A DNA stretch of 62,544 nt from positions 1-62,544 of the forward strand of contig JBEGTL010000001.1 of NCBI GenBank assembly GCA_041179425.1, read 5' to 3'. Below, piece by piece: positions 21,579 through 61,508 of this stretch. Every line of letters starts with the position of its first letter. The stretch's first letter is position 1. Source of the DNA: Pseudomonadota bacterium (GTDB taxonomy: Bacteria; Myxococcota_A; Polyangia; Polyangiales; DASUME01). Below the pieces are notes generated by a model that was given only the letters and a program-made list of their open reading frames with translations, had not been told where the DNA came from and ran no database searches. Made by a program: the position numbers and the translations under genes.

Positions 21579-21911
21579 GCCCCTCGTGCACTGACTCGCG
21601 CGCGCTCTCGAGCGGCCTGCGCGATCGGCTTTGCGATCTCGCGAGCAGGGTGCAAGAAAAATTGCCTGGCTAAACTGTCAGTGAATGATGGTTCGTCTCC
21701 ACGTCCGTCTGACTAGCCGACGTCATACGAGGGCGAACGTTTTGACCCATCGAGTGCATGACGAGAGGTCGCTTGCTGCGCCTTGCCGTTCTGCCCTCGC
21801 CAATCGATCGCGTGGACTCACTTTTGGGGGGGGTAGTAGAGCCCGGCACCTGTCCCTGGGTGCGAGCGTTTGCCACAATGGCCTACCCCCCAGCCACGGA
21901 GTCTGCTTCCG

Positions 21912-43952: not shown

Positions 43953-44289
43953 ATGGTGTTTCCCTCAGGAGGTCAGAAGCCTCGATCGCTAACACGGGAG
44001 GCCACGGTAGAGCACTGCAATGAGACTCCGGTGCGGCTTGGTCCCGACAATCGAGCGCTGCGATCGATGCAAAAGTGAACTGTTGCTGCTGCACGCCGAC
44101 GCCTCGCCCAAACCCCGCCATTGTGCGATCTGACTGACGCGTTCGCGATTGCGCCAGAGGCGCCGACGAGCATTGAGCCGGGTGCGCTGCGCGTGTAGGG
44201 TCGGGGCTCGGTAGACACGGAAACGAGTGTGGACCTGACCACGGTGGAGACCGACTCTCCGCCGGACTTGTCGCGACGAGAGGATCGGG

Positions 44290-46605
44290 ATGTTGGAGAC
44301 GTTGACGGCTGAGCTGGTATGGGGCCTGGTCCCACGGTTCGTCGGAGTGATCTACCTGCTCGCGTTCGGAGCGTTGATCCCGCAGCACGAGATCATGCCG
44401 GGGGCACGCCGCCTGGCCCCGCTCGGGCTCTTGCGCGCGCGCATTCGCCGCGACTTCCCCGGGCTACGGCGCTACTTCGAGTTCCCCACCGTGCTGTGGA
44501 TCGACGACAGCGAGTTCACACAAAAGGCGCTGCTCTGGGCGGGCGCCCTGTGTGGTGCATGCGCCGTGTACGGCGGGCCCTACGCCTTCTACGCGCTGCT
44601 AGTCGGGTGGATCATCTGGCTCTCCGTCGAGCCGCGCGGACTCATCTTCCCGTGGGACACCATGCTGCAGGAAGTGGGCTTTTTGGTGCTGTTTCTGCCC
44701 GCGGGCGAGACACTGCCCAGCCTGCTGGCGACGGCGCTGCCGCTGCCCTCGGTGGCCTTCGTGTTCCGCTGGTTCGTGCTGCGTTTGGTGCTGGGTTTCG
44801 GCAAGGACAAGTTTGTCGGCACCACCAAACAAGACCTGCTGTACCTGCGCGGCTTCTTTGTGTGGATGCCGCTGCCCACGCCGCTGGGTTGGTACGCTCA
44901 TCACGCGCCCGCTTGGTTCTTGCGGGCCAGCCTCGGCTTCATGTTCTTCGCCGAGATCATCGCGCCCGTGCTTGGGCTGTTTTCGGGCCCGCTGCGGGTC
45001 GTCTCGTTCGTCACGCTGGTCGGGCTGATGGCCGGCATTCATGCAACTGGCAACTGGGGGTTCTTTAACCTCGGCTTCGTCATGCTCAGCGTGTGTCTGC
45101 TCGACACCAAGTCTTCCATCTTCGACCTGCAGCTCGAGCCGTGGGCCAGCCGGCTCACCACCTTCCCGGACGTGGCGATCCATTCGACGATGGCCGGCTT
45201 GTTCTTGGTGAGCCTGCTCTACGTGTTCAACAACTCGTGGTTCATGCGCACCTGGCTGCACTGGCCGGCCGACATGTTCCCGCTCCCACACAAGTGGGTC
45301 CCGTGGGTCGCGCGCTTCAACGCGGCGCTCGAGCCGCTGCGCTGGCTCGCTCCGTTCCGCGTGGTCAACGGCTACGGCGTGTTTCCCCCGCACTCCATGC
45401 CCCCGATGCGCCTCCTGCCCGTGCTCGAGGGCAGCGACGATGGCGTCACCTGGAAGCAGTACGGGTACAGACACATCCCCAGCTTCGCGCACTCGCGGCC
45501 GCCGTTCATCGCGCCCTACCACGCGCGGCTCGATCAGATCACGTACTACATGACCATGGGCATCGACAGTGGCAGCCTGTTCGGCTCGCTGTTTCCGCTC
45601 GCCAATCCGTACACCATCAACGCGCGCGTGATCATGTTCGACCTGCTCGCGCAGCGTGTGCTCTCGGGCGACCCGCACCTGCTTCGCCAGCTCGGCCACA
45701 ACCCCTTTCCCGAGGCGCCGCCGACGCTCGTCCGGGTCGGCATGATCGGGATGACGCCCACGCGGCCGAGCGAGCTGCGCGCGACCGGGGAGTGGTGGCA
45801 CGTGCGGCGCCTGGGCACGCTGGTGCCGGCGCGCGGCGTGACGACCTGGCTCAACGAGCTGCTGATTCCGGAGCCCGAGCTGTTCCATCCCGATCTCGTG
45901 CGCTGGCGTGATCGCGCCGCGCCGCTGCGCGCAATCGTGGCCGCGCACGCAGCGGGTCAGCACCCCGACCAGGCCGTGTTGGCCGGCAGCGACCTCACTC
46001 TGGCCGACGTCGAGTGCCTGTGGAACGAGCTCGTGCCCATGCTGGCCGAGGCACGCGGCGACTGGACGCGCATGCACGAGCGCGAAGACGCGGTCACGGC
46101 GCGTTTTGGTCCCGTCGCGCTGTATCGTCTCGAGCGCGTGTTCGAGCGCTACGTGTGGTTGTTGCGCAAGCAGACCGGGCGCCATCGTTTTGGCCTCACA
46201 GAGCCGTCGCTGCCGGTGCAGAGCAACTTCCGCTACCACATGCTCATGCACGAGATCGTGCTCGACGGGCGCGCTGCCTACCACGCCGTGATGGCCGACC
46301 CCGCGCGCGTGGTCGAGCGTGTCGAGCGCTCCACCGATGCGACGCAGCTGTGGGCGCTCACGCTGTTCCGCTACGACCAGGTGATGCTGCACGTCAGCAC
46401 ATTCCGCTGCTCGCAGATGGGTCTGCAGAGCAAGATGCACGGGCTGCCGAGCTTCTTCGAGTACTACGACCTGCTCGTGGAGCAGGTGCCGCGCGGCGAA
46501 GAGTTCTGCCCCAAGTTCGTGCTGCACGAAGACGGCGAGCACACCATCGAGGGCTTCTACCCGCCGCCTCCGCTGCTCACGAGCACCCGCGCGCAAGAGG
46601 GCTGA
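44290..46605 (+). CDS. lipase maturation factor (LMF1/DUF1222) family membrane protein with C-terminal extension (paralogue 2)
   Basis: Collinear with 41655..43952 over the full length, for example LIFPWDTMLQEVGFLVLFLP, NGYGVFPPHSMPPMRLLPVLEGSDDGVTWKQYGY and the tail EEFCPKFVLHEDGEHTIEGFYP. Confidence 0.8.
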   Translation: MLETLTAELVWGLVPRFVGVIYLLAFGALIPQHEIMPGARRLAPLGLLRARIRRDFPGLRRYFEFPTVLWIDDSEFTQKALLWAGALCGACAVYGGPYAFYALLVGWIIWLSVEPRGLIFPWDTMLQEVGFLVLFLPAGETLPSLLATALPLPSVAFVFRWFVLRLVLGFGKDKFVGTTKQDLLYLRGFFVWMPLPTPLGWYAHHAPAWFLRASLGFMFFAEIIAPVLGLFSGPLRVVSFVTLVGLMAGIHATGNWGFFNLGFVMLSVCLLDTKSSIFDLQLEPWASRLTTFPDVAIHSTMAGLFLVSLLYVFNNSWFMRTWLHWPADMFPLPHKWVPWVARFNAALEPLRWLAPFRVVNGYGVFPPHSMPPMRLLPVLEGSDDGVTWKQYGYRHIPSFAHSRPPFIAPYHARLDQITYYMTMGIDSGSLFGSLFPLANPYTINARVIMFDLLAQRVLSGDPHLLRQLGHNPFPEAPPTLVRVGMIGMTPTRPSELRATGEWWHVRRLGTLVPARGVTTWLNELLIPEPELFHPDLVRWRDRAAPLRAIVAAHAAGQHPDQAVLAGSDLTLADVECLWNELVPMLAEARGDWTRMHEREDAVTARFGPVALYRLERVFERYVWLLRKQTGRHRFGLTEPSLPVQSNFRYHMLMHEIVLDGRAAYHAVMADPARVVERVERSTDATQLWALTLFRYDQVMLHVSTFRCSQMGLQSKMHGLPSFFEYYDLLVEQVPRGEEFCPKFVLHEDGEHTIEGFYPPPPLLTSTRAQEG

Positions 46606-49428: not shown

Positions 49429-49541
49429 GCGCGCGGTCTTCCGCGCGCGAGCGAAGAGCCGACGGCGCGCGGTCTTCCGCGCGCGAGCGAAGTGCCGACG
49501 GCGCGCGGTCTTCCGCGCGCGAGCGAAGAGCCGACGGCGCG
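49429..49541. repeat. 36-bp tandem repeat, 3 full copies plus a partial one, each containing an 8-bp-stem hairpin
   Basis: GCGCGCGGTCTTCCGCGCGCGAGCGAAG(A/T)GCCGACG at 49429, 49465 and 49501. The stem is GCGCGCGG/CCGCGCGC with loop TCTT. It lies in the spacer between the SRPBCC stop and the P450 start. Confidence 0.85.
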
Positions 49542-50069
49542 CTACGACCGATGCGGTAGACCACTCGCGGCCACGCCGTGCGTTCGAATCCAACGGTTGA
49601 GGAAATCGGCCGCGCGATTGTGTGCGTCTCGCTGGGTCCGCTCGAGAAACTTCTCGATGAGTCCGCCCACGCCGTAGACCTTGACGGTATTCTCGACTAC
49701 GGTCACGCGCTCACAGCGTGTTCCGTCACCCAGCGGACGCGTGCTGATCTCGAACGTCGTGCCGAACTTGTCGGCATTCTGTTTGGGCACGCAGCGCGCG
49801 CTGTACTGCTTCCGCACGCTGTCGTAGTCCCCAAACTCGCTGTACGAGCCATCGCCCACGAACTTCTTGGCGAAGCTCGGCAGCTCGACCTGGGCGGTGT
49901 AGTCGATGCGCCAGCGGGTGCCGACGTCGCTGACCTGCTCTTCGACGACCTCGTAGCTGCCGGGACTGCCGAGGTCCTGCCACATGGCCAGTGCCACATT
50001 CTGGTCCAAAAACAGCTTCCAGAAGCTGTCGACGTCCGTTTCGATGGTGTGACGTACCGTGTAGCCCAA
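49542..50069 (-). CDS. SRPBCC-superfamily (DUF2505 / polyketide-cyclase-like) protein
   Basis: 175 aa. The MGYTVRHTIETDVDSFWKLFLD... pattern is typical of DUF2505. Coding composition is clean. Confidence 0.7.
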   Translation of the reverse strand: MGYTVRHTIETDVDSFWKLFLDQNVALAMWQDLGSPGSYEVVEEQVSDVGTRWRIDYTAQVELPSFAKKFVGDGSYSEFGDYDSVRKQYSARCVPKQNADKFGTTFEISTRPLGDGTRCERVTVVENTVKVYGVGGLIEKFLERTQRDAHNRAADFLNRWIRTHGVAASGLPHRS

Positions 50070-50307
50070 GGCCCGACCTCCCGCTGTGGCTCTGCCTTAG
50101 CTCGCGAGCGAGCCGCGGTCACCTGTCCAGGCGCAGCACGGTTCCGTGGTGCAGAGCTCGAAAGATCCGTTTTTCGACAGTCTCCTACCTCGGGCGCCGT
50201 CCCCACGAACGGAGGACGCTGAAGCTCCAACACGGGACGATTCGGTCCCACCCGGGACAATCACGGACCCTCGTCAGCGCACCGTTTTTGAGCGGCCCCG
50301 GTAGATT

Positions 50308-50695
50308 GTGTCAGCGCGTGCGCGGGCTCCAAATGTCCCATGCGATTCGTCGAGCACGGCGGGCGACCTGAGGCGCAGCGCCGAGCAGACGCAGACCGGA
50401 CGCGGCGTGATCGTGGCCCACATCGACTGGGGCTTGGACTTTGCGCATCCCGACTTCCGGCATCCAGACGGGCGCACGCGCGTGCTTGCACTGTGGGATC
50501 AGACCTGCCCCTACGACGCGCGGTATCCCAACCCCTCCAAGCTCGGTCGCGTCTATCGAAGCGCCGAGATCGATCGCGCACTCGCGACGTCCGATCCGTA
50601 TCGTGCGCTGGGCTACGACCCAACGCAGTCCGATTCTGGCAAGGGCACGCACGGCACGCACACCATGAGCATCGCGGCGGGCAGTGGGGGGGGCA
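50308..50695 (+). CDS. N-terminal segment of a subtilisin-family (S8) protease carrying the catalytic Asp and His; the frame is lost at the G8 tract
   Basis: TGRGVIVAHIDWGLDFAHPDF carries the Asp and GKGTHGTHTMSIAAGSGGG carries the His. After the G run this frame turns into Arg-rich junk and the S8 sequence continues in frame +2. GTG start at 50308. Confidence 0.6.
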
Positions 50696-53600
50696 CAGCG
50701 ACCGAGCGGACTCGCCCCGAATGCAAGGCTCGTCTTCGTGCAATTCGCGACGACGCTGCCCAACGCACCCGCGCTGCTCGGCGACTCGGTGACTCTTCTC
50801 GAGGCACTCACCTTCGTCGAGAGCGTGGCAGAAGGGAGCTGCTTCGTGATCAATGCCAGCTTGGGCCGGCACGCTGGCGAGCACGACGGTTCAACCCTGA
50901 CCGAACAAGCCATGGACCACTTTTTGTTGGCGGCGCCAGGGCGCGCGATCGTGCAGAGCTGTGGCAACTACTTCGACCGCGGTATTCATACGAGCGGCGT
51001 ACTGAGACCGGGTCAGACCGAGCGGCGGCGGATGCTCGTCGAAGAGGGCGACCGCACGCCCAACGAGCTCGACCTGTGGTATCCGGGTGCGGATCGCTTT
51101 CGTGTCACGGTGCGCGGCCCTGGTCGCGTTGGCGAGGTCAGCGTTCGTGGCGACGAGCAGGCCCTCGTCGTGGTCGATGGGCAAGTGCTCGGCCGGCTCT
51201 ATCATCGGCTCGGCGATCCCAACAACGGCGACAACCAGGTCACGCTGTTTCTCTATCGCGGCGCACCCGCCGGGGCATGGGAGGTCGAGCTGTTCGGCGA
51301 AGACGTCGTCGATGGGCGCTTCCACGCGTGGGTGGAGCGCGACGCCGCGTGCGCAGGATGTCAGGCCCGCTTCGCGCCCGAAGATCGCGATCCGACCGGA
51401 ACACTAGGCACGATCTGCAACGGCCTGCGCACGCTGGCCGTTGGCGCCTACGACGCGCATGACCCGCGGCGCCCTCTCGCACGCTTCTCGAGCGCCGGCA
51501 GGACGCGCGACGGTCGTGAGAAGCCGGACCTGGTAGCACCCGGTGTCGCCATCCTCGCGGCGCGTTCAAGACCACGTACGACGAGCGAAGAGGCCGCGCT
51601 GCTGACGCGCATGTCTGGCACCAGCATGAGCGCGCCCCACGTGACTGGCACGATCGCACTGATGTTCGAAGCCGCCGGCAGGCCGCTGCGCATCGAGGAG
51701 ACGCGCAGCTTGCTGCTGGGGCACTGCGACCCGAGCGAGAGCACGCTCGATCTCGATCAGTATCGCCACGGCAGTGGCTATCTGAATACGGACGCAGCCG
51801 TCGCTGCGACTCTGCACGCCGCGCGCACGAACCGATTCACAGCACGCACCGCCCAAGGCACCGCACCACAACTTTCCCCTCGTGTAACTGATTGGAGGCA
51901 ACTTCCGATGGACCCAAACAACAGCGCGAACTCGAGCTCCGGTGTGGCGCCAGAGCACGACGCAGAGGCCCGCTCCGACGAGCGCGGTACAAAACAAGGT
52001 AGGACCTCGAGGTTTCAGCCTTCGCCATTTCAGTTTCAGATCCCGCCCGCGGGCGGACCTCCGGCACTGGGCATTCCGATTGGCGGTCCTGGATCGCCGC
52101 TGGGCTTTTCGATTCCGCTTGGCGGCGCGAGCCTACAACCCGCGGCGCCCGCGCCAGTGGCGAGTGCAGCGCCCAACGTCACGGGCTCGGTAACCGTCGG
52201 GGCGGCAACTGCTCTCGGGGCCACGCCGCCGCGTATGGGTAGCGAGCTCGAGCCGGTCGCGGTGGCGACGTCTGAGCCCCTGTACGCGCCGCCCGCCCCC
52301 GAGTGGATGGAAGCCGAAGAATATGAGATCTCACAAGAGCGTTCGGGTCTCGGCTCGTCCGAGCCCGCCTTTGGCCAGCGTGTGCTGGCCGCCGCGGAGA
52401 GCCTGATCGCCGCGGGCTCGCATGGGCGCACCGTTTCTTCGTCGGCTTTGCTCCGCGCTCTGTTCCATGGGCCGAACGCGCTCGCAGCTCCCGCCGTGCA
52501 AGCACCGACTGCCCCGCTGGCGCCTCACGGGGCCGCACCGTCCGCGACCGCTCTCTTCAAGGTGCTCGCGTACCCGCGGGCGTCGGCGGCCCGTCGCGGT
52601 GCCATCGAGCGCCTCTACGGTACGCGCTACGCCGTGTTGGCTCGGCCGGGCGATCCGTTGTCCAACATCGCGCCCGCGCCTGGCGACTTACTGCTGCGGG
52701 TCGCGCGCGGCGAGGCCTGGGGACACGTCGCGGTGGTCGCTTCGCCGGCCTTGTTTGCTCACGAGCAGCTCGTTGCACTGCGTCTGCAGCCCGAAGGCGC
52801 GCCACGAGCACTGCCTGGTCACTACCTGCACGTCGTCGAACTCGCGCCGATTCGACGTCTTGCCAGTGAGCGATTTGTGCGGCGATTGTGCGATGCAGCG
52901 GGCGTGGTGTTGCCCGACACACTGTGGCTGCGGCCGATCGATCCGCGCGCTCTGGGGTCGAACGAGCCAACACGACGAGTCGACACGAGGTCGTTCAGCA
53001 CGCATCGCGCCTCGTCCGAGGTCGGCTCGTGTGCGGTCTGCACCGAACGCCTCGGCGAAGACGCCGGAGCACCGGCGGTGCCAGTTCCGGCGGGCCGACT
53101 CGTCGTCAACCAAGTGCCTCTTTTGCGTGCGCATCGCGGGACGCGGCCCGATCTCATCTTGTCTTGGAATCGTATGCCGTCTGCTCCACGTGCCGTCGAC
53201 GTGGTCGTGCATCTACACGGCTTCTCGCGTGCAGGCGCACAGATGAGTCTCGAGCGCGACAAGGAGCCGATGTGCGGCCTCGACTTTTCCGATCCCGACG
53301 ATCCCAGCGCAGAGGGCCGGCGAGAGCCGACCCTGTGTGTCTTGCCGCGGGGTAACTTCTATGGCGGTCGCTCCGGCGCGGGGTACGACTTTCCGGCGCT
53401 GCTCGGCAGTGACGGCTTGAGCGAGCTGATTCGTCTGTCTCTTGCACAGCTCGCGGCGCAGCTTGGGCAGCGCGAGGTCTCGATGCGCCGCTTGATCCTG
53501 ACTGCGCACTCGGGCGGCGGCGCTGCGCTCATGGGGCTGCTCGCCGGCACCGACCCCGACGAGGTCCACATCTACGATGCGTTGTACGGCGACGCTTCGA

Positions 53601-56029
53601 GGTTGATCGCCTGGGCCGGCGCGCGCCTGTTGCGGCCCGATGCCGCCGACTCTGCACTGCGTGTCGTGTACATCGCAGGCACCGGCACGGCCGCCCAGAG
53701 CGAGCGTGTCGCGCGCGCGTTACGTGGCGCCATTCCTGTGGGCGATCCACGTGCGACACGCTTTCGTGTAGAGGCGAGCGCGCTCCCTCACAATGCGATC
53801 CCTCGCCGCTCTGGTTTTCGGCTGCTGCGCGATGCAGGCGCAGATCTGACGGCGCGGGTGCACACGCGCGTGGACCAGGCGCCAACGCGCGAGCACTCCG
53901 ACGCCCCGGTGCCAGAGCGGGCTGACGAAGGCGAGCCAGGCGAAAGCGACGACTCGTCCGACAACCAACACGCGGGAGCGTGGGCAGAGGATCAGGGCTT
54001 CGCCGACGACGATGGCCCGCCGCCGATCATCCCCACCAAGACACCTCTCGCGGTCCCGCCTGGAACGCCCGTTCCATTTGCCCCCGCGCCGGGTCCAGGT
54101 AGCTTCTGGCCCATCATCACCTCCCATCGTACGGGCCGCTCGGTGAGCTTCTTGGCGGACGACGGCACCACGGTCGGGCAAGCGGGCCGTCGTTTTTTTG
54201 CCGATCGCACGAGCGGCAATCGTCATCACGCGGGGGTCGACCTGTTTGCCAACTTGGACGATCGCGTGGTCGCGATCGAAGACGGTCAGATCGTCAGCTT
54301 CTTCGGGTTTTGCTGCGGTGAACATCACACCACTTTTGCGCTGCTGATTGCGCACGCGCAGCTGGTGGTCAACTACGGCGAGCTCGCACCGGACTCGTTG
54401 TCGCGCGCAGGCCTGCGCATCGGCTCTCGCGTGCGAGCTGGCGATCTCGTGGGCTTCGTCGGCCGCAATCCCGAGGGTAGCAGCATGCTGCACCTCGAGA
54501 CCTACGTGCCTGGCACGCAGGCCAATGCGCGCTGGCCGCGCGGTGCGGCGGCACCCGCGAGTCTGTTCAATCCAACGTCGTATCTGCTGCACCTTCAGCA
54601 GCACGGAAGAGTGGGCGGGTCCGCACTTCCGGGTTTGCCCACTCCGCTACCCGGCCTCACGCCTCCCCCAGCAGGTCCCTTGGCCGCGCCGAATCGTCGT
54701 AGCCCGGCGTACATTGCCTGGGTGCAGACGTCGCTCAACGCGATCGCGCACGCCGGCTTGGTCGTCGACGGCATCAGCGGACCCCGGACCCGAGCTGCCG
54801 TGCGCGCCTTCCAGCAAAGTCGCGGTCTCACACAGGATGGCATCGTCGGACCGCACACCGAGGCTGCGCTGCTTGCGAGCGGCGCGACTGCCCCGTTTGG
54901 CGCGCTACCGACGCCTGTACCGCAGGTGACGCCTCCCACGCCGCCATCGCCACAGCCACCACCGCCGCCTCCGATCTCGCCGCCGCCGCAGCCACCGCTG
55001 TCTGCTGAGACGCCGATCTCCGACGCACTGGTGCTCGCGGTGACTCCGCTGCAGTTCGCCAATGCCGCCAACATCGACGAGTTCTTCCGCCGTACGAGCG
55101 GAGCCGACTTCGTCGACTGGTTCAACGCACGAATCGCCGGAACTGGTCTCTGGAGTCGCTCGCGGCTCGAGCCGGCCCGCACCCCAACGACGGCAAAGGC
55201 TCGCTTCCGGCAGATCTGGGATCGCATCCCCGAGCTGTTTGGCACACCGACCGTCAACCTCTTTCAGTTCCTCTCGCTGATGAGCATCATCATCAACGAG
55301 ACGGGCGGCCAGATGCTCCCGATCTCCGAGCGGGTCGGTCGCCCTGGCCACCCGGGGATCGCGTACGCGTTCGATCGCATTCCGGGCACCAAACATTCCT
55401 ACAACGCTGGGGGCAATCGCACGGCGCTCCAGCTCTTCAACGACAGCGAGTTTCTGAACGCACACGGCGGACTTCCGCTGGCCGCTCGTGTGCGCGACAC
55501 GACCGATGCGCGCTGGGGAGGCGACGTCTATCCCCAAGGCGACTTCCCGACCTCGACCGATCCCAGCATCAGCGGCATCCTGCTCCAGGCCGACTTCTAC
55601 AAGTTCCGCGGACGCGGCCTGATTCAGACGACCTTCCGCGACGCGTATCGGCGCGTCATCGCGCACATTCAGAACCACGCGCCTACGCAGGCCGTCGTCG
55701 CTGACTTCAGCAGACGGTGGGCCGGTCGAAGCGCGGAGAGTATCGCGACGACCACTAGCAACGAAGACTGGAATCGCCTCTACGAAGAGACTGACCTGTG
55801 GGTGGCCGCGGCCAGCGTGCATCTACACAGTCAGAGCAAGCGCAACTATCTGACGCTACCGCTCGACGCCCGCACTCTCAACGGCAGACAAAATGGTTCC
55901 ATCTGGAACGTCGGGCGACAGGTAAGCGGCTCCGAGCGCTATGCAGACTTGCTGCGCGGCCGCGTGTTGCAGATGATTCGGGCGCTCCCGCTGGCCGCTG
56001 AGCGGCCGAGTGAACAAGCGGTGGGGTGA
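50684..56029 (+). CDS. giant multidomain hydrolase: rest of S8 protease + alpha/beta-hydrolase-like + M23-like + PG_binding_1 + GH19/lysozyme-like modules
   Basis: 1781-codon open frame. Motifs are SGTSMSAPHVTG (S8 Ser), VVVHLHGFS/LTAHSGGG, NRHHAGVDL, DGISGPRTRAAVRAFQ...DGIVGPHT, SIIINETGG and FYKFRGRGLIQTT. Pro-rich linkers join the modules. Confidence 0.8.
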   Translation: MGGAQRPSGLAPNARLVFVQFATTLPNAPALLGDSVTLLEALTFVESVAEGSCFVINASLGRHAGEHDGSTLTEQAMDHFLLAAPGRAIVQSCGNYFDRGIHTSGVLRPGQTERRRMLVEEGDRTPNELDLWYPGADRFRVTVRGPGRVGEVSVRGDEQALVVVDGQVLGRLYHRLGDPNNGDNQVTLFLYRGAPAGAWEVELFGEDVVDGRFHAWVERDAACAGCQARFAPEDRDPTGTLGTICNGLRTLAVGAYDAHDPRRPLARFSSAGRTRDGREKPDLVAPGVAILAARSRPRTTSEEAALLTRMSGTSMSAPHVTGTIALMFEAAGRPLRIEETRSLLLGHCDPSESTLDLDQYRHGSGYLNTDAAVAATLHAARTNRFTARTAQGTAPQLSPRVTDWRQLPMDPNNSANSSSGVAPEHDAEARSDERGTKQGRTSRFQPSPFQFQIPPAGGPPALGIPIGGPGSPLGFSIPLGGASLQPAAPAPVASAAPNVTGSVTVGAATALGATPPRMGSELEPVAVATSEPLYAPPAPEWMEAEEYEISQERSGLGSSEPAFGQRVLAAAESLIAAGSHGRTVSSSALLRALFHGPNALAAPAVQAPTAPLAPHGAAPSATALFKVLAYPRASAARRGAIERLYGTRYAVLARPGDPLSNIAPAPGDLLLRVARGEAWGHVAVVASPALFAHEQLVALRLQPEGAPRALPGHYLHVVELAPIRRLASERFVRRLCDAAGVVLPDTLWLRPIDPRALGSNEPTRRVDTRSFSTHRASSEVGSCAVCTERLGEDAGAPAVPVPAGRLVVNQVPLLRAHRGTRPDLILSWNRMPSAPRAVDVVVHLHGFSRAGAQMSLERDKEPMCGLDFSDPDDPSAEGRREPTLCVLPRGNFYGGRSGAGYDFPALLGSDGLSELIRLSLAQLAAQLGQREVSMRRLILTAHSGGGAALMGLLAGTDPDEVHIYDALYGDASRLIAWAGARLLRPDAADSALRVVYIAGTGTAAQSERVARALRGAIPVGDPRATRFRVEASALPHNAIPRRSGFRLLRDAGADLTARVHTRVDQAPTREHSDAPVPERADEGEPGESDDSSDNQHAGAWAEDQGFADDDGPPPIIPTKTPLAVPPGTPVPFAPAPGPGSFWPIITSHRTGRSVSFLADDGTTVGQAGRRFFADRTSGNRHHAGVDLFANLDDRVVAIEDGQIVSFFGFCCGEHHTTFALLIAHAQLVVNYGELAPDSLSRAGLRIGSRVRAGDLVGFVGRNPEGSSMLHLETYVPGTQANARWPRGAAAPASLFNPTSYLLHLQQHGRVGGSALPGLPTPLPGLTPPPAGPLAAPNRRSPAYIAWVQTSLNAIAHAGLVVDGISGPRTRAAVRAFQQSRGLTQDGIVGPHTEAALLASGATAPFGALPTPVPQVTPPTPPSPQPPPPPPISPPPQPPLSAETPISDALVLAVTPLQFANAANIDEFFRRTSGADFVDWFNARIAGTGLWSRSRLEPARTPTTAKARFRQIWDRIPELFGTPTVNLFQFLSLMSIIINETGGQMLPISERVGRPGHPGIAYAFDRIPGTKHSYNAGGNRTALQLFNDSEFLNAHGGLPLAARVRDTTDARWGGDVYPQGDFPTSTDPSISGILLQADFYKFRGRGLIQTTFRDAYRRVIAHIQNHAPTQAVVADFSRRWAGRSAESIATTTSNEDWNRLYEETDLWVAAASVHLHSQSKRNYLTLPLDARTLNGRQNGSIWNVGRQVSGSERYADLLRGRVLQMIRALPLAAERPSEQAVG
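50686..50693 (+). repeat. G8 homopolymer at the frame break of the S8/multihydrolase gene
   Basis: GCAGT-GGGGGGGG-CACAG. With 7 G the two ORFs fuse to give ...HGTHTMSIAAGSGGAQRPSGLAPNARLVFVQF, the expected S8 context. Confidence 0.8.
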
Positions 56030-56052: not shown

Positions 56053-57054
56053 CTAGAGCGTATCGAACTCTCTCCTGTCGATCCCATGCTTGCGCATGAG
56101 TCGGCCAAATACACGTCGGTCCTTACCAGCGCGCAAAGCTGCAGCAGAGACGTTGCCACCCGTCTCGGCCAGCTGCGCACGCACGTAGCGCGCTTCGAAG
56201 TCGGTGAGCACGGCACTGCGCGCGGCTCGGAATTCTTCTCGAGCGACACTGGCGCTCGCTGCCGCCGGCTCGCGAGCGGTGGTCGGCTCCAGCTGGATCA
56301 CGTCGGCGTCCGACATGAGGAATGCACGATGAACGAGATTCTCCAGCTCGCGCACGTTGCCGGGCCAGCTTTGCGCCTTGAGCCAAGACAGCGATGTAGC
56401 GCTGCAGCGTCTGCGCCCGGTACCGTGGCGCGCGCTGAGCCTCGCCAGGATGTTGTCCACCAGCAGCGGCACATCGTCCTTGCGAGCCCGCAGGGGCGGC
56501 AGATGGAGCTGTCCAACGTTGAGCCGATGATGTAGGTCCTCGCGGAACGTGCCCTCTGCCACGCGCTCTGGTAGCGACTGGTTGGTGGCCGCCAGCAAGC
56601 GTACATCGGCGCGACGAGCCGAGGTGGCGCCGAGCGGGCGATACGAGTGGTCTTGCACGAAGCGCAGCAGCGCCACCTGACCCTTGGCTGAGAGGCAGTG
56701 CACTTCATCGAGGAGCAGCGTACCTCCCTCGGCCTGCGCGACGAGTCCGCGCGACTCGCCGCGGGCATCGGTGTACGCGCCGGAGACGTGACCAAACAGC
56801 TCGTTTTCGAACAAGTTGTCCGGTAGCGCTCCGCAGTTGACGGGCACAAAAGGTTTGCTGCGTCGTGGTCCCAGATAGTGGAGTGCGCGGGAGAACAGCT
56901 CCTTGCCGGTCCCCGTCTCTCCCTCCAACAGCACAGGCACGTCGTAGCGCGAAAGACGCCTGACCAAGCGACACGCGGCCTTGATCATGGTCAACGGCCC
57001 GGCCTGGAAAGCTTTGATCGAAGAGGAGTTCGGCGACGGAATCATGTCGGCCAT
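56053..57054 (-). CDS. sigma-54-dependent transcriptional activator (AAA+ and Fis-type HTH only, no N-terminal sensory domain)
   Basis: Walker A is LLEGETGTGKE. The GAFTGA-equivalent is ELFGHVSGAYTDA. Walker B is LLLDEV, followed by WPGNVRELEN and the C-terminal HTH GNVSAAALRAGKDRRVFGRLMRKHGI. ATG at 57054; an upstream TTG at 57126 is also possible. Confidence 0.85.
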   Translation of the reverse strand: MADMIPSPNSSSIKAFQAGPLTMIKAACRLVRRLSRYDVPVLLEGETGTGKELFSRALHYLGPRRSKPFVPVNCGALPDNLFENELFGHVSGAYTDARGESRGLVAQAEGGTLLLDEVHCLSAKGQVALLRFVQDHSYRPLGATSARRADVRLLAATNQSLPERVAEGTFREDLHHRLNVGQLHLPPLRARKDDVPLLVDNILARLSARHGTGRRRCSATSLSWLKAQSWPGNVRELENLVHRAFLMSDADVIQLEPTTAREPAAASASVAREEFRAARSAVLTDFEARYVRAQLAETGGNVSAAALRAGKDRRVFGRLMRKHGIDRREFDTL

Positions 57055-57132
57055 CGACTTCGACTTGAAGCTGGAGCGCCTCGCAAACGCCAAGGGCGAC
57101 CGCGTACAGCTCACCATGTCAGGCAAGTTCTT

Positions 57133-57321: not shown

Positions 57322-60300
57322 TCATGAGGCCACGATGTGGGAGGCGATCGCGCGCAGCACTGCAGGCTCGGGCATCCGCGGCACGCGGTTGTCGAAGCCG
57401 AGCACCAGCGCCGCCACCACTTGATCCTGGCCGTCTTGACGCGCCCAGAGCGGCGCCACGCAGTAGCGCTTGTTGCCCACCACCTTGTAGTTGGAGTCGA
57501 TCTGCGAGTTGACGTCCTCGGTCATCACCGTCTGCTCGTCGACGTCGGCGTCGAGCAGGTTCTGCTCGGCCCACAACACCAGCTCGCGCTCGGGCGAGTC
57601 GTTGCCCAGGTGCGCGGCGGGTTCACCCTCGGAGCCCGCCAGCACCACGAAGCCCTCGTCCGCGGTGGAGAGCTCCAGCGCCACCTGCAGGCAGCGGGTG
57701 GCGCGCTCGCCGACCTGGGTTTCCGCGTGCTGATTGAGCATCAGCTGCACGCGCGTCATCAGGTGATTCACGTTGTCGAGCAGCGCGCCATCGCTGTCCA
57801 AGGTCACGCCGTTGGGGTTCTCGGCGCGGTCGATCTGCCGCCCCAGCGCGCGGCAGCGCTCGATCAGCGAGGGGATGCCGAGCGGCTTGAGCAGCGCCTG
57901 GGTCTGCTCCAGCTCGCTGTGTGCCGTCGCGAAGTCGCGGCCGATCAGGGCCACTCGTGCCAGCGCGTCGTGCAACGAACCCAGTGTCAACGCGCTCTGG
58001 TTGGGCTCGTTGTCGGCCAGCAGCTTCGCCAGCTGTTCGCGCGCCAGCGCTAAGCGCCCGAGCCCCGCTTCGGCGAGCGCGAGCTCGATCGGCGCGTTGA
58101 GGCCCATCGCCACGTACTTGAGGTCGTCGGGCTCCAGCTCGGACATCGCGTCGAGGCAGATCGCACGCGCCTGCTCGTGCTGGCCGAGCTCGTTGTGGGC
58201 GCGCGCGAGCACACCCCGGCTGCGCCACCAGCCCACGGCGCCGTAGCGCTCATCCACGGGGCCAGCATCGGAGAGCTCGATCGCTTGTGCGTACTTGCCC
58301 CGCAGCACCAGGTACGCCACGCGCGCAGCGCGCTCCTGCACGTGCAGCGAGGGGATCTCCGCGCTCAGCCTGCTCAGCTCCTGCACCGCGCGCTTCATCA
58401 CGGAGGCATCGTGGGTGCGCAGTGCGAGCTTGGTGGAGTCCGCGGGAGCCCAGCTCTCCACTTGCCAGGCGCTGCCGAGCTGCACCGCGTGAACCTCCAT
58501 ACGCTGGCGGCAGGCCTCCGCGCGTTCCGTGTCGCCTTGCCCGGCGAAATGGCTCTTTCGCAGGTGCTCCGCGACCATGGCGAACATCGGGCCGAAGTGC
58601 TCCAGCTCGTCGGCGATCGCAAGCACGTCCGTGGAGTCGCGCCAGCACTCGATCACACCCAGTGCGAACAAGCAGCCGGCCTGGTAGCTGCGCCGCACCT
58701 GGTCGGGGAACTCGCGGATCGGAGCTTGCAGTCGCACCATCAGCGCACGTACCTCGCGCACCGAGCGCGCGGGATGGTCGCGCACCTCCGTCTCCAGCAG
58801 CTTGCTGAAGTCGTAGACCACGCTGGTCGAGTGGTCCGACCCGAAGATCGTGAGCGGCTCGAGCAGCTCGGCATAGCGGGCCGCGCGGTCGGGATCGATG
58901 CACACTGCCGCCGTGCACGTCAGCGTGGACACCGCCGTCATCATCGCGCGCACCTGGTGCGCTAGCGGGAGCGCGCGCTTTTTGCGCACCGCCAGGCTGA
59001 AGCCTGCCACCACCAGCGCGACGATCATCGACAGCTTCTTGCCGAGCCAGGGCGTCAGTGCGCGCGCCATCGGCAACCGGAGCACACGTTGCTGGGTAGT
59101 CAGCGCCAGGTCTCCGTAGCGCTCTGCGTAGCGGCGGTTCGCCACGTAGCCTGCCACCGCCAGAATGGACAACGGCCCGCACAGCACGTAGTAGTCCGCG
59201 CCTGCGTCACGCAGCAGCAGGTAGACCTCTTCCAGCATCGCGGCGTCCCGCGCGACGATCGCCAGGTCGCCACCGGCGTAGACTGTCATGGCGCGGTTGA
59301 GCGGGGCATACGCGGCGGCCAGCTCACGGGCGCGCGTAAGGTGCGCGCACGCTCGCAGCTGGCCCAGGGGCTCGTGCGAGTCGCCCGACGCGAGCAACAT
59401 CCGTCCCACCCGTGCGTGCACGGCCAGCCGCTCGCTGGTGGCGAGCTCGCCGTGCAGCGCCTCGCGTAGATCCTGATGGGTGGTCGAGTAGCCGATGCTG
59501 TCGTCGCCGCGCAGCACACCTGCCCGCTCCAGCACCTCGATCAGCGGGTGCAGCTGGTCCGGAGCGAGCGCAGAGGCGGCGCTGGCCTGCTCGAGGGTCC
59601 AGTTGCCGGAATGCGGAACGCTCAGCTGCTGTGCCAACAGGCGCGCCGCAGTGGGCAGGCGCTCGAGCCGCGTCAGCAGACCGGCCTGGCGACTGCGCGG
59701 CAAGCTGTCGGCATCGAGCTCGGTGGGCAACACCCAGCCGCCCTCGACGTAGCGTGCGAGCCCGCTGTGCACGACATGTTGCGCGAGCTCCAGGCAATAG
59801 GCGGGGTTGCCCTCGCTGTTGCGTTGCAAGCGCTCGGCCAGGCGGTCGAGATAGGGTGCGTCGCCGAACACCGAGTGCAGCAGCTCGTACGTCTCGGCGG
59901 CGCTCAGCGGCAGCAGCCGAAGGCGCGTTGCTTGCCCGCGCAGGCTGGTGATGGCGGGCGAGAGCTCGCGCTGTGGGTCGCGCACGAGCGAGGTCACCAA
60001 GCACAGCCGCAAGGAAGCGACACCGTGCGCGAGCGCGGCGAACAGCGCCTGTGACTCCTCGTCGATGGCTTGCAGGTCGTCTACCAGCAGCACCGTGAAG
60101 CGCTCGCGTACCAGGCTGGAGAACACCTCGAGCAGCGCGCTCTGCAGGCGTACGCGCTCGTCGGCAGCGCTCTCCGCCAGCTGCGAGAGGCGCCCCACAC
60201 CCAGCAGCTCCCTCAGCGCGGGTGAGACGTGTGCCAGCACGCTCGCGTGCGGGGCGGTGGCGGCACGGGTCGGCTCCGGTAGCGTGCGGAACCACTGCGT

Positions 60301-61407
60301 CAGCACGAGCTCTGCGCCCGCGTACGGTCGCAGCGCGCGCGAGCCATCCAGGCTGAGCGTGAGCGCACCCTCGAGCTGCGCCAGCACCGCCAGCTCTTGT
60401 AGAAAACGCGTGCGCCCCACACCTTCGTCGCCTTCGATGGCGAGCACCCGGCCCTTGCCCTCGCGGGCCGTGCGCAGCGCCTCGCTGAAACGTTCGCGCT
60501 CGCGCTTGCGACCCACGAACGCCTTGCTCGCGAGGTACCCTGCCGCTGCCTGCTCGGTGGCCTCTGGCGCCAGATCTGCCAGCGTGTTGAGGCGATCGAT
60601 CAGCTCTACGGTACTGCCGGGGCGCTCGGTGGGGTCCACACGCAGCAGTGCGCCGAGCAGGTCGTCCAGCTCGGCAGGAGGCGGCTCGAGCCGATCATTG
60701 GCGGCCATCGCGATCAGCGACGAAGGGGGCACCGGATCGCGCTCCCACAGCTGAGGCAGATCGTTGAGCGTCCGCGCCGGGAAGGCGTTGGCGCCGGTGA
60801 TCAGCCAGTAGCCGAGCGCGCCGAGCGCAAACAGATCGGAGCGTTGATCGAGCGGCGAGGTGCGCAACGCTTCGGGCGAGACGAAGGGTGGGGTACCCAC
60901 CACGTCCAGCGGGAGACCGAACTCGGCCAGCGCACCGAAGTCGATCAGCTTCAGCAGGCCGCTGGGCGTCTCGATCAAATTGCGCGGACTCAAGTCGCGA
61001 TGGAGCAGACGACGCGCGTGCAGCAAGCCGAGGATGGACGCGGTGTCGCGCAGGTAGCGGCAGGCGGTGCGCCACGGCAGCGGCGCGCGCGTGCTCAGGT
61101 CGCGGCCCTCCACCAGCTCCATGGTGTAGTAGGCGCCTTCGCTGTCGGTTCTGTAGTCGTACACCTCCACGATGTTGGGATGGCGCAGGCCAGCCAGCGT
61201 GCGGTACTCGCGCTCGAACAGCGCGTTCGCTTTGTCGCGCGCGCTGCTGTGCAGCCGCTTGAGCGCGAGCTGCGCGCCGTTGGTCTTGTCGACCACCGCG
61301 TATACGGCGCCCATGCCACCCTGGCCGAGCAATCGCCCGACCTCGTAGCGGCCCCCAACTATGCACGCGGAGGCCTCGCGACGAGGCGCCACCGAACTTT
61401 GAGCCAT
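57322..61407 (-). CDS. Ser/Thr protein kinase fused to a STAND/AAA_16-type NTPase, TPR-like helical repeats and a C-terminal GAF domain
   Basis: Kinase motifs are GQGGMGAVY, LALKRL, HRDLSPRNL and DFG. The P-loop-like motif is IEGDEGVGRTRF. A long helical region follows, then a GAF-like end (...VAPLWARQDGQDQVVAALVLGFDNRVPRMPEPAVLRAIASHIV). ATG at 61407. Confidence 0.9.
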   Translation of the reverse strand: MAQSSVAPRREASACIVGGRYEVGRLLGQGGMGAVYAVVDKTNGAQLALKRLHSSARDKANALFEREYRTLAGLRHPNIVEVYDYRTDSEGAYYTMELVEGRDLSTRAPLPWRTACRYLRDTASILGLLHARRLLHRDLSPRNLIETPSGLLKLIDFGALAEFGLPLDVVGTPPFVSPEALRTSPLDQRSDLFALGALGYWLITGANAFPARTLNDLPQLWERDPVPPSSLIAMAANDRLEPPPAELDDLLGALLRVDPTERPGSTVELIDRLNTLADLAPEATEQAAAGYLASKAFVGRKRERERFSEALRTAREGKGRVLAIEGDEGVGRTRFLQELAVLAQLEGALTLSLDGSRALRPYAGAELVLTQWFRTLPEPTRAATAPHASVLAHVSPALRELLGVGRLSQLAESAADERVRLQSALLEVFSSLVRERFTVLLVDDLQAIDEESQALFAALAHGVASLRLCLVTSLVRDPQRELSPAITSLRGQATRLRLLPLSAAETYELLHSVFGDAPYLDRLAERLQRNSEGNPAYCLELAQHVVHSGLARYVEGGWVLPTELDADSLPRSRQAGLLTRLERLPTAARLLAQQLSVPHSGNWTLEQASAASALAPDQLHPLIEVLERAGVLRGDDSIGYSTTHQDLREALHGELATSERLAVHARVGRMLLASGDSHEPLGQLRACAHLTRARELAAAYAPLNRAMTVYAGGDLAIVARDAAMLEEVYLLLRDAGADYYVLCGPLSILAVAGYVANRRYAERYGDLALTTQQRVLRLPMARALTPWLGKKLSMIVALVVAGFSLAVRKKRALPLAHQVRAMMTAVSTLTCTAAVCIDPDRAARYAELLEPLTIFGSDHSTSVVYDFSKLLETEVRDHPARSVREVRALMVRLQAPIREFPDQVRRSYQAGCLFALGVIECWRDSTDVLAIADELEHFGPMFAMVAEHLRKSHFAGQGDTERAEACRQRMEVHAVQLGSAWQVESWAPADSTKLALRTHDASVMKRAVQELSRLSAEIPSLHVQERAARVAYLVLRGKYAQAIELSDAGPVDERYGAVGWWRSRGVLARAHNELGQHEQARAICLDAMSELEPDDLKYVAMGLNAPIELALAEAGLGRLALAREQLAKLLADNEPNQSALTLGSLHDALARVALIGRDFATAHSELEQTQALLKPLGIPSLIERCRALGRQIDRAENPNGVTLDSDGALLDNVNHLMTRVQLMLNQHAETQVGERATRCLQVALELSTADEGFVVLAGSEGEPAAHLGNDSPERELVLWAEQNLLDADVDEQTVMTEDVNSQIDSNYKVVGNKRYCVAPLWARQDGQDQVVAALVLGFDNRVPRMPEPAVLRAIASHIVAS

Positions 61408-61508
61408 CAAACCCCCCGCTCAACTACCGAACCCGTGCGGGCGCGCGTCAATGGACGCGTTTGAGAGCAGTGTCCTCGCGTTGCGGTGAATGTCGGCGCG
61501 AGTGCGCC

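Follow-up and report, generated by a model that had tools for sequence, protein, structure and literature searches.

The DNA analysed here, a window of 62,544 nucleotides, probably carries between positions 50308 and 56029 a real, though disrupted, gene for a giant modular hydrolase of the cell wall. The family to which it belongs is widespread and apparently unstudied, no published description of it having been found in the literature. A sequence-only reading of the window had assigned the span to a single open reading frame (ORF) encoding one intact chain of about 1900 aa, but two frames are present instead, with a switch at a G8 tract, and the gene is truncated at its 5' end. As sequenced, this copy could make neither the 1900-aa chain nor an active S8 peptidase. 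The features are as follows.

50308 to 51462, plus strand: frame-1 ORF of the ORF listing, protein-like only to about 50690
50308 to 50693, plus strand: 5' gene fragment in frame 1, holding the start of the S8 domain, 89% identical to residues 93-209 of the closest relative (P0002)
50340 to 50360: approximate 5' breakpoint, with the sequence homologous to family members and the sister contig L001 from here on
50365 to 51808, plus strand: peptidase S8 (subtilase), split by the frameshift (Pfam PF00082, E 1.4e-29)
50684 to 56029, plus strand: long frame-2 ORF of 1781 codons with all modules after the frame switch (P0001, 100% identical)
50686 to 50693, plus strand: G8 homopolymer at which the reading frame shifts by +1; G7 would restore a single ORF
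51947 to 52528, plus strand: conserved leader and Pro/Ala/Gly-rich spacer, with FQFQIP at 52028 and PIGGPGSPLGFSIP
52529 to 52945, plus strand: module X, a conserved domain containing PGDLLLRVARGEAWGHVAVV
53069 to 53863, plus strand: module Y, predicted alpha/beta-fold serine hydrolase (invariant Ser, Asp and His, model and fold matches)
53136 to 54682, plus strand: 1.5-kb cassette of Y, acidic linker and M23, from comparison of the window with a sister gene
54071 to 54613, plus strand: variant M23/LytM domain (Pfam PF01551, bit score 32, cutoff 28.7)
54710 to 54880, plus strand: PG_binding_1 (Pfam PF01471, E 2.4e-14), followed by a poly-Pro linker
55004 to 56029, plus strand: all-alpha 'GH19-like' module of a Pfam-less family (invariant Glu, motif and profile matches)
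56053 to 57126, minus strand: intact sigma54-dependent transcriptional activator (Pfam; synteny with L001)

The G8 tract lies between the catalytic His and the oxyanion Asn of the S8 domain. Beyond it, frame 1 is Arg-rich nonsense up to a stop at 51462, and the two frames had been tacitly joined in the sequence-only reading, the S8 Asp and His being encoded in frame 1 and the rest in frame 2; when the sequence was re-read, every motif listed there was found where it had been placed. Removal of one G from the window sequence yields a continuous protein of 1906 aa, which equals the 82%-identical P0002 in length through the site, while the relative L001 reads GGCAGCGGCAGTGCAGAGCGA at this point, with no homopolymer and with the same length as the G7 version. 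The NCBI annotation of the same 62,544-bp contig covers 50738-56029 only, as a 1763-aa 'hypothetical protein'. An open frame of 1781 codons whose protein has 867 database homologues (E<=1e-5) is far beyond chance. Besides, the relatives, which come from many phyla (actinomycetes and cyanobacteria among them), are each encoded by one uninterrupted ORF of 1200-2600 aa, so that assembly error does not account for the multi-enzyme fusion.

Regarding the 5' end, unrelated minus-strand DUF2505 and P450 genes lie upstream of the breakpoint, and an in-frame TAG (50302-50304) stands just before the frame-1 fragment. Relatives have about 80-100 extra N-terminal residues compared to the window gene, and this part was absent from every frame of the window. 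In the same line, none of the small partner genes of the family operon is found in the window, and no sigma54 box above background occurs near the gene, relatives having such boxes upstream of the operon. The sole other component of the family cluster left in the window is the sigma54 activator, which is 45% identical to that of a Paraburkholderia cluster. The coding sequence itself shows no sign of decay, as judged from a dN/dS of 0.07-0.22 across the modules and from relative-rate tests of 8 vs 10, 3 vs 2 and 13 vs 9, so that the lesions would be either recent or technical.

It is unlikely that both lesions are sequencing or assembly artefacts, the extra G being a homopolymer miscall and the junction near 50340-50360 a chimeric contig join, in which case the genome would really read G7, perhaps with the full operon, and the organism would make the intact giant protein. 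The origin of the sequence from a metagenome-assembled genome points in this direction, as do the low dN/dS, the lack of excess in window-specific substitutions and the intact state of the retained activator; the open 1781-codon frame and the absence of accelerated change are just as compatible with an artefact, and within one assembly a true G8 and a miscalled G7, like a real 5' deletion and a chimeric join, are indistinguishable. However, the two lesions are independent and each would need its own artefact, no repeat able to promote a misjoin was found at the 5' junction, and the sister contig keeps synteny downstream but not upstream. A second G8 tract, at 24197, is moreover in frame within an intact 1354-aa ORF, which shows that miscalling of homopolymers is not systematic.

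It is rather improbable that the shortened gene still works, through a product of about 1760-1780 aa initiated internally at 50684 or 50738. Devoid of a working S8 domain, this protein would still comprise X, Y, M23, PG_binding_1 and the GH19-like module, and would serve to hydrolyse the cell wall. Such a product corresponds to the ORF annotated by NCBI, purifying selection has acted on its downstream modules, which are intact, multi-hydrolase proteins containing Y with no S8 head do exist, and the second large protein of the Paraburkholderia cluster begins directly with the leader and module X. Nevertheless, it would start in the middle of the S8 fold and lack a signal peptide, and the window offers no known export route, promoter, sigma54 box or partner genes. 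Finally, poly-G tracts are classic contingency switches and G8 tracts are rare here (3 in 62.5 kb), which is consistent with a phase-variable or programmed frameshift, slippage at the G8 switching the full-length protein on and off; this is very improbable, given that the closest relative has no homopolymer at the site, that 119/119 relatives are single ORFs, and that the 5' truncation and operon loss would be left unexplained.

Under the preferred reading of an interrupted but genuine family gene, the modules can be considered one by one. The S8 call stands on the Pfam match together with the motifs of Asp40 (50425-50427, in VIVAHIDWGLD, frame 1), His118 (50659-50661, in GTHGTHT, frame 1) and the nucleophile Ser439 (51623, in SGTSMSAPHVTG), to which the oxyanion Asn220 (50966) is added. 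These residues are kept in the family (Asp in 117/117, His in 105/118, Asn in 118/118 and Ser in 119/119), and the dN/dS of the domain is 0.07. The region that follows had been taken for a plain linker, but it holds a conserved FQFQIP...PIGG.GSPL common to the N-terminus of the second large protein of the Paraburkholderia cluster, residues 5-305 of which match the leader with an E-value of 1e-38; FxFxIP is present in 40/119 relatives. Module X (dN/dS 0.17) has no Pfam match and no PDB relative. It is probably non-catalytic, because its invariant residues comprise only G, D, R, A, V, T and F, with no invariant Cys or His.

Module Y can confidently be modelled as an alpha/beta serine hydrolase, in agreement at fold level with the sequence-only reading. 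It displays HLHGFS at 53210 and an invariant Ser-Asp-His triad made of the nucleophile Ser1068 (53510, in LTAHSGGG), Asp1090 (53576) and His1161 (53789). Profile matches to Hydrolase_4 are weak; the predicted structure (pLDDT 85.9, pTM 0.89) matches alpha/beta hydrolases only (E 2e-5, TM 0.45-0.53). Y is always fused to peptidoglycan enzymes. An 83%-identical sister gene has 47 nt in place of the 1.5-kb Y/M23 cassette, and P0002 has neither Y nor M23.

The M23/LytM assignment was borne out by a Pfam match above cutoff (E 1.5e-7). Mapping of the active site from family invariants and alignments to lysostaphin 4qp5 and 9gy1 indicates that, as in lysostaphin/LytM, the zinc ligands of the HxxxD motif and the last His are kept, namely His1307 (54227, in NRHHAGVDL), Asp1311 (54239) and His1395 (54491). 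In contrast to active M23 enzymes, both catalytic histidines are replaced, by the invariant Glu1358 (54380) and Met1393 (54485). The first His of HxH, already noticed as missing, corresponds to this Met, in MLHLE at 54485-54497. Without both catalytic His, the module may bind rather than cut. EnvC-type degenerate LytM domains have lost their metal ligands, whereas the window domain retains them. The PG_binding_1 call likewise rests on its Pfam match.

The C-terminal module is probably a muramidase-type glycosidase, judging from its motifs. It has an invariant Glu1664 (55298, in SIIINETGG) and Glu1674 (55328), then FYKFRGRGLIQTT at 55595, and its significant profile matches to GH19-type endolysins extend only over the 25-35 residues or so of the active-site motif. 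The GH19-like call therefore holds at motif level and not at fold level, the module having no Pfam match, PF00182 included, and no PDB fold match for an AlphaFold model that is weak in its core (pLDDT ~50-60). With PaGH19Lys (9EOI) and the SPN1S endolysin (4OK7) it shares the motif FRGRGxIQ(I/T)TGRxNY, whose Q and T belong to the catalytic cleft, as well as a Glu pair upstream of the motif and an all-alpha fold. 9EOI is a proven GH19 muramidase with active-site Q127 and T129 within the shared motif. The window module differs in the spacing of the Glu pair (10 residues vs 9), in the residue preceding it (Asn vs His), in having some 100 more residues between the pair and the motif, and in size (~340 aa vs ~200). 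Overall, fewer than two of the hydrolase assignments failed.

In the family, a conserved N-domain of about 90 aa precedes the S8 head, often followed by the leader and X, then by shuffled cell-wall-hydrolase cassettes, some members carrying M15/VanY domains. The gene stands at or near the end of an operon that is controlled by either a sigma54 activator or a BTAD regulator. Before it come 4-5 genes for small proteins that fit no described family: one with a glycine zipper, one with a four-Cys zinc ribbon, one with a coiled coil and a hydrophobic tail, and one that spans the membrane once and often has a PASTA domain. Of 54 loci whose flanks are long enough, 40 have the N-domain, 37 the zinc-ribbon protein and 31 the Gly-rich protein, in constant order. 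The only relatives of these partners in NCBIfam, PHROG, PADLOC or the PDB are PASTA-domain matches, obtained for the membrane protein. The reported lack of a Sec/Tat signal applies to the whole family, 0/119 relatives having a hydrophobic N-terminus. No immunity gene was recognised in the window or in the neighbourhoods of relatives, which is unusual for an antibacterial toxin.

Polymorphic toxins, as reportedly described by Zhang et al. in 2012, combine a conserved N-terminal part with variable C-terminal toxin cassettes, some with releasing peptidases. The present family resembles them by its conserved N-terminal region, its enzymatic C-terminal cassettes swapped between close relatives and its modules aimed at the cell envelope, but it has no recognised trafficking domain, secretion system or adjacent immunity gene, it has several catalytic modules in series rather than one toxin tip, and an operon of small accessory proteins is particular to it. 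In the S8-PTS of Firmicutes, exemplified by the S. aureus S8-Ntox35 locus, an S8 subtilase is likewise associated with an effector, a polymorphic antibacterial one that it activates by proteolysis; there it is separate and Sec-secreted, and its three-gene locus also encodes a BetaH-toxin fusion and an immunity protein (10.1101/2025.07.24.666436), whereas the family S8 is fused to the effector with no signal peptide, and no BetaH domain is seen. Several wall-cleaving and wall-binding modules per chain are also seen in multi-domain peptidoglycan hydrolases that are secreted or borne on virions, such as phage tail lysins and the wall-degrading effectors of the T4SS (X-Tfe) and T6SS. One family member is labelled 'phage tail tip lysozyme', and the GH19-like module has a marine-phage homologue, but no phage structural genes, XVIPCD, PAAR, VgrG or MIX occur in the protein or the examined neighbourhoods.

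Intact members would probably act as envelope-degrading effectors, and their domain content is fairly described as a 'cell-envelope demolition kit'. The GH19-like module would cut glycan strands, M23 (or the M15/VanY of other members) stem peptides or cross-links, and Y an ester or amide bond, while PG_binding_1 would anchor the protein. By architecture and analogy, the S8 head may cut the long linkers and thereby mature or release the modules, and the membrane partners might let a protein with no signal peptide reach the wall, a putative role in export. The proposed setting in a predatory myxobacterium is not supported, the family spanning many phyla, nor is that of a contact-dependent toxin, no T6SS, T4SS, CDI or OME markers or genes being found in the window or beside relatives. 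It is conceivable, though somewhat unlikely, that these proteins act on the producer's own wall instead of that of competitors, with the membrane partners as holin-like gates and the PASTA protein as wall sensor; regulated autolysis, abortive infection or developmental remodelling could then be their roles. The missing signal peptide and immunity gene, the tight sigma54 or BTAD regulation, the glycine-zipper and PASTA membrane proteins among the partners and the occurrence in both Gram-negative and Gram-positive lineages are consistent with this view, as is the use of GH19 endolysins for self-lysis in pyocin release (PMC12329726). Against it, cassettes are extensively shuffled between close relatives, which is the hallmark of polymorphic effectors used in antagonism, PADLOC gives no defence-system match for the small partners beyond the PASTA one of the membrane protein, and PLD or other toxin-like domains not directed at the wall occur in some members.

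The forward-strand span 50308-56029 holds a polymorphic multi-domain cell-wall hydrolase in a disabled copy. The sequence-only reading had its domain content largely right; the intact single chain, the myxobacterial predator and the contact-dependent toxin that it suggested are unsupported. In place of a single open reading frame (ORF) of about 1900 amino acids (aa), the span carries two overlapping plus-strand ORFs in different frames, 50308..51462 and 50684..56029. Frame 1 is protein-like up to '...GTHGTHTMSIAAGSGG' and Arg-rich nonsense after it, frame 2 has its meaningful start at 'GGAQRPSGLAPNARLVFVQ...' and carries all the downstream modules, and the switch between them is a run of eight G (G8) at 50686-50693. 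Removal of one G gives a continuous 1906-aa protein, here termed the repaired protein, to which the residue numbers refer. At the same site, the closest relative (P0002, an 82% identical protein) reads GGCAGCGGCAGTGCAGAGCGA, with no homopolymer and with a length equal to that of the G7 version. The Asp (50425) and His (50659) of the S8 peptidase are encoded in one frame, and its oxyanion Asn (50966), its Ser (51623) and all other modules in the other; the motif positions proposed earlier were all correct, but two frames had been joined without mention, which illustrates that a stitched reading of raw sequence can conceal a frameshift. For this span, the NCBI annotation of the contig, which stems from a metagenome-assembled genome, gives only a 1763-aa 'hypothetical protein' (P0001).

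Features of the span and of the gene that follows it
52529-52945, plus strand: module X, which contains PGDLLLRVARGEAWGHVAVV
53069-53863, plus strand: module Y, an alpha/beta serine hydrolase
55004-56029, plus strand: GH19-like module, a Pfam-less family
56053-57126, minus strand: sigma54 activator, intact, 45% identical to the activator of the family's gene cluster in Paraburkholderia (the Paraburkholderia cluster) and syntenic with the contig of P0002 (L001)

Besides the frameshift, the gene has lost its 5' end. In nearly all of the best 119 homologues, the counterpart of repaired-protein residue ~20 is residue ~90-110, and a conserved N-terminal domain (N-domain) precedes this point, with the pattern M-E-x-A-L-x-E-L..EG.PDDEV.VI.RL...GVR.VA.FG.I.TCRL.R.DI. 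This domain begins at the initiator Met, contains no hydrophobic segment and has its motif at the start of 86/119 relatives; it has no Pfam match even at E<=10, and from its position and size we infer a subtilase propeptide. No match to the first 92 residues of P0002 was found by tblastn in any frame of the window, an in-frame TAG stands at 50302-50304, and the DNA homology to L001 sets in at window position 50360, takes in the 3' end of the next gene and stops at 56229. Since the N-domain is absent and the homology starts at 50360, the window gene is 5'-truncated near 50340-50360. Upstream of the truncation, the opposite strand carries DUF2505 and P450 genes (Pfam), which have no relation to the family, and no repeat was found at the 5' junction. 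A tandem array with a 36-nt period, GCGCGCGGTCTTCCGCGCGCGAGCGAAG(A/T)GCCGACG, occupies 49429-49542 in three near-perfect copies; it falls between the DUF2505 stop and the Pfam-supported start of the minus-strand P450 gene.

Only two parts of the cluster are kept in the window, namely the truncated and frameshifted giant gene and the intact sigma54 activator. None of the small partner genes that precede the giant gene in relatives is present anywhere in the 62.5 kb, and no sigma54 box above background is found ahead of the giant gene. The coding sequence itself is undecayed: dN/dS against the sister gene on L001 is 0.07 (S8), 0.17 (X), 0.22 (PG_binding_1) and 0.16 (GH19-like), relative-rate tests with outgroups give counts of 8 vs 10, 3 vs 2 and 13 vs 9, so that changes specific to the window copy are not in excess, and 1781 open codons remain. 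The low dN/dS and the lack of rate acceleration lead to the rejection of long-term pseudogene decay, and the lesions must therefore be either very recent or technical. A general homopolymer problem is counted against by a second G8 tract, at 24197, which is in frame within an intact 1354-aa ORF, and a conserved programmed frameshift was rejected because the relatives have neither the tract nor the shift. The lower GC3 of the giant gene (0.75 vs 0.87-0.90 in neighbouring core genes) is consistent with horizontal acquisition. As sequenced, the window copy is probably non-functional and thus says little about the biology of the source organism. The ORF that contains the 24197 tract in frame (21840-25901, plus strand) encodes a 1353-aa fusion of indoleamine-2,3-dioxygenase-like, FAD/NAD-binding reductase and cytochrome b5 parts, and a further G8 tract, at 21826, lies just upstream of its start.

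At the head of the repaired protein, the proposed S8 subtilase is borne out by a PF00082 match of 103.8 bits, vs a cutoff of 21.8 (E 1.4e-29; Pfam). D40, H118, N220 and S439 are all encoded but, owing to the G8 frameshift, not in one polypeptide as sequenced; in intact relatives, the triad and the oxyanion Asn are together in one polypeptide. Counted by pairwise mapping, Asp is kept in 117/117 relatives, His in 105/118, Asn in 118/118 and Ser in 119/119.

The Pro/Gly/Ala-rich linker described ahead of module X is there, but it is not a plain one, as it contains a conserved FQFQIP...PIGG.GSPL.F.IPLG motif. This leader and X together align, at E 1e-38, to the extreme N-terminus of another large protein, the second encoded in the Paraburkholderia cluster, a similarity which suggests a shared recognition or delivery module. 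Module X is conserved and has no invariant Cys or His in the family alignment, where variation affects both the WGHVAVV His and the RRLCD Cys; with no Pfam match and no PDB relative (shallow profile), it is probably not an enzyme. Such a second large protein is encoded 3' of the giant gene in some clusters: at L002 (16892-20278), it has the FQFQIP leader and X at its very start, followed by PG_binding_1 and OmpA, and at L004 (16133-18457), it has PG_binding_1 at its start, followed by OmpA and PLD, and no match to the X query.

In the M23/LytM-like module, PF01551 scores 32.0 bits, vs a cutoff of 28.7 (E 1.5e-7; Pfam), and a separate profile search matches lysostaphin at 2.7e-5. Aligned to lysostaphin and a second M23 enzyme of solved structure, the module is seen to retain the Zn ligands H1307, D1311 (HxxxD) and H1395; the first His of HxH, reported as missing, is indeed replaced (Met1393), and Glu1358 takes the place of the mid-domain catalytic His. 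Neither replacement varies within this subfamily, in which the full HxxxD/HxH set with its catalytic histidines is not found, and to judge from these residues the domain would have either a different catalytic arrangement or a role in binding only. The adjoining PG_binding_1 repeat was correctly recognised (PF01471, 53.7 bits vs a cutoff of 23, E 2.4e-14; Pfam).

Module Y had been called an esterase-like alpha/beta hydrolase, and both the fold and the triad were found. Alignment A1 gives an invariant S148 (in the nucleophile elbow TAHSGGG), D170 (FDALY) and H241 (H.xIPR) in canonical order, plus HLHGFS. The AlphaFold2 model (pLDDT 85.9, pTM 0.89) was compared with the PDB by Foldseek: the best 50 matches are all alpha/beta hydrolases, with a top E of 2.3e-5 and 68 matches passing E<=1e-3. 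These matches, among them YjfP, the siderophore esterase EstB, PETases, prolyl oligopeptidases and antigen 85C, are all distant (E ~2e-5, TM 0.45-0.53, 10-15% identity). In the analysis as a whole, single-sequence PDB searches returned noise except for one motif match. Y belongs to no named Pfam family of esterases, lipases or peptidases: the window sequence has no Pfam match, and a permissive scan of its relatives gave weak Hydrolase_4 matches in 3/9, the best at 0.0015. Y is a compact family in its own right, with 581 of 1.84 billion representative clusters. The sampled proteins that carry Y without an S8 head all (10/10) join it to enzymes or binders of peptidoglycan (muramidase, glucosaminidase, SLT, VanY, M15_3/4, DUF2272, PG_binding_1, PLD), which argues for an envelope-directed serine hydrolase.

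The C-terminal module had been described as GH19-like, and this holds in so far as its active-site motif matches that of GH19-type endolysins, but not for the PF00182 match that had been expected: none of nine members matches this family even at E<=5, nor do any of the 120 listed of 162 homologues. Pfam gave no match at all for the window segment, and permissive scans of the members added none. Most of these listed homologues (P0121-P0240) are standalone 'hypothetical proteins' of 320-360 aa, for instance in Bacteroidota, and some are fused to PG_binding_1, OmpA, LGFP, SH3 or hemopexin. A 39-sequence profile matched seven PDB chains, all of endolysin type (9ms6 at 1.6e-5; 9hnv, 9ms7, 8xcl, 8p8e and 9eoi all at <=4.4e-4; 4ok7, the SPN1S GH19 endolysin, at 0.089), with matches confined to the FRGRGxIQ(T/I)TGRxNY motif. 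The active-site motif GRG(P/L)xQ(L/I)T with its cleft Gln and Thr is thereby present, and the Q and T are invariant in the family of the window module. 9EOI is PaGH19Lys, a proven GH19 muramidase in which the active-site Q127 and T129 lie within this motif and the catalytic Glu residues, E51 and E60, have a spacing of nine (PMC12329726). In the window module's family, E1664 and E1674 are invariant and 10 residues apart, in a region that HMMER leaves unaligned to GH19. The AlphaFold model is all-alpha, with a pLDDT of 71 overall and ~50-60 in the core, and in view of this moderate confidence and of the lack of any PDB fold match a GH19 fold is not claimed; the model strongly matches only one structure, that of a homologous 'putative hydrolase' of 776 aa from an uncultured marine phage (A0A8D9CEH1). 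We read the module as a distant GH19/lysozyme-like glycosidase outside PF00182, and probably a muramidase.

The question raised earlier, whether orthologues are single ORFs, is answered by the relatives, each of which encodes its 1200-2600 aa in one ORF. In these proteins, a constant S8 region at the N-terminus is combined with C-terminal cassettes that vary between proteins, as in polymorphic toxins. The cassettes include M15_4, VanY, M23, Amidase_2/3, GH25, glucosaminidase, SLT, phage-tail lysozyme and OmpA, and also PG_binding_1/3, PLD, metallophosphatase, beta-lactamase-like, hemopexin and other modules; the exact series of the window recurs in none of the best 120 relatives. Despite a DNA identity of 83%, the sister gene has neither Y nor M23: window positions 53136-54682 are replaced by 47 nt in it (L001 4932-4978). 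This clean 1.5-kb indel is, at the sequence level, a direct example of cassette shuffling, module cassettes thus moving between 83%-identical genes. The family is hosted by Alpha-, Beta- and Gammaproteobacteria, Myxococcota (several copies in Kofleriaceae metagenome-assembled genomes), Acidobacteriota, Gemmatimonadota, Planctomycetota, Chloroflexia, cyanobacteria and actinomycetes (Kribbella, Virgisporangium), and this spread over many phyla leaves the attribution to a predatory myxobacterium unsupported.

In every relative with enough flanking sequence, across many phyla, the giant gene is preceded by a conserved colinear set of small genes, seen at L002 (6511-9934), L004 (6668-9988), L005 (6134-8675), L006 (5505-8970), L007 (6070-8885) and also at L008-L045.

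Components of the accessory operon
Component 1: regulator, a sigma54 activator or BTAD
Component 2: ~90-aa protein, sometimes present
Component 3: 290-500-aa protein with an invariant glycine-zipper ladder
Component 4: protein of ~175-210 aa whose four-Cys zinc ribbon is invariant
Component 5: ~200-aa coiled-coil protein with a hydrophobic Gly-rich tail
Component 6: single-pass membrane protein of 150-210 aa that often carries a PASTA domain

A tblastn survey of the 54 GTDB loci whose upstream flank reaches 3.5 kb or more detected the N-domain at 40 of them, the zinc-ribbon protein at 37 and the Gly-rich protein at 31, in an order that never varied. In the sigma54-regulated operons, -24/-12 boxes stand ahead of the first small gene, with a perfect TGGCACG-N4-TTGCA at L006. 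Except for PASTA matches of the membrane protein, the small partners have no NCBIfam, PADLOC, PHROG or PDB relatives, the other PDB matches being coiled-coil noise. No published description of the family or of its operon was found in the literature, and neither is covered by the Aravind-lab conflict-systems paper. The giant S8-headed family, the two Pfam-less modules (Y as a distinct alpha/beta serine hydrolase, and the GH19-like one, which also exists as hundreds of standalone 'hypothetical proteins') and the colinear operon are thus three apparently unstudied things, and the wider family with its operon is an interesting lead.

With regard to known toxin systems, the S8-headed family resembles polymorphic toxins in its constant N-terminal region and variable C-terminal effectors, but differs from them in having no recognised secretion or trafficking domain or apparatus. 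The absence of a Sec/Tat signal noted for the window protein extends to the family, as 0/119 relatives have a signal-peptide-like N-terminus. No secretion-system genes lie beside the window gene or its relatives, and elsewhere the window has the usual content of a chromosome, without secretion-system or phage-tail genes. A T6SS, T4SS, CDI or OME effector was rejected, since neither markers nor neighbouring genes were found, and for the same reason a contact-dependent toxin is unsupported. The earlier remark that no immunity gene is obvious nearby agrees with the gene order, the next gene being the convergent sigma54 activator, 24 nt after the stop; nor does any consistent downstream gene, as an immunity candidate, occur in the examined relatives. 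In the Firmicute S8-PTS, whose three genes include one for immunity, a separate secreted S8 protease activates a BetaH-toxin fusion (10.1101/2025.07.24.666436). That three-gene locus is not found here, where the S8 is fused to the effector, signal-less and set among other neighbours, and the resemblance is an analogy only.

With the demonstrated anatomy, conservation, predicted folds and operon linkage of the family as a basis, intact members would be envelope-degrading effectors whose modules hit different bonds of the sacculus, with PG_binding_1 as an anchor. The fused S8 would mature or release these modules by cutting the long Pro/Ala/Gly-rich linkers, and the glycine-zipper, tail-anchored and PASTA membrane partners would give the signal-less protein access to the wall. 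Regulated autolysis, with the producer itself as the target, is kept alive by the lack of an immunity gene and by the tight regulation, whereas the shuffling of cassettes favours antagonism, with a competitor as the target. As a tentative and rather doubtful proposal, the giant S8-headed hydrolases and their operon (glycine-zipper, four-Cys zinc-ribbon, coiled-coil tail-anchored and TM/PASTA proteins under sigma54 or BTAD) could form an undescribed, horizontally mobile export/release system for signal-less polymorphic wall-degrading effectors in Gram-negative and Gram-positive bacteria, in which the fused S8 would serve maturation and of which the window would hold a recently disabled relic. 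If the operon does route such proteins to the cell wall, it would represent a new export or lysis mechanism and a source of new lytic enzymes.

Two further features of the window deserve mention. Directly past the sigma54 activator, a minus-strand gene (57322-61410) encodes a 1362-aa protein with a Ser/Thr kinase, an AAA_16 (STAND-like) ATPase and TPR. Further upstream, two divergent genes, at 41655-43964 (minus strand) and 44290-46605 (plus strand), encode paralogues of ~770 aa with LMF1 and LMF1_C lipase-maturation-factor domains, a family better known in eukaryotes.
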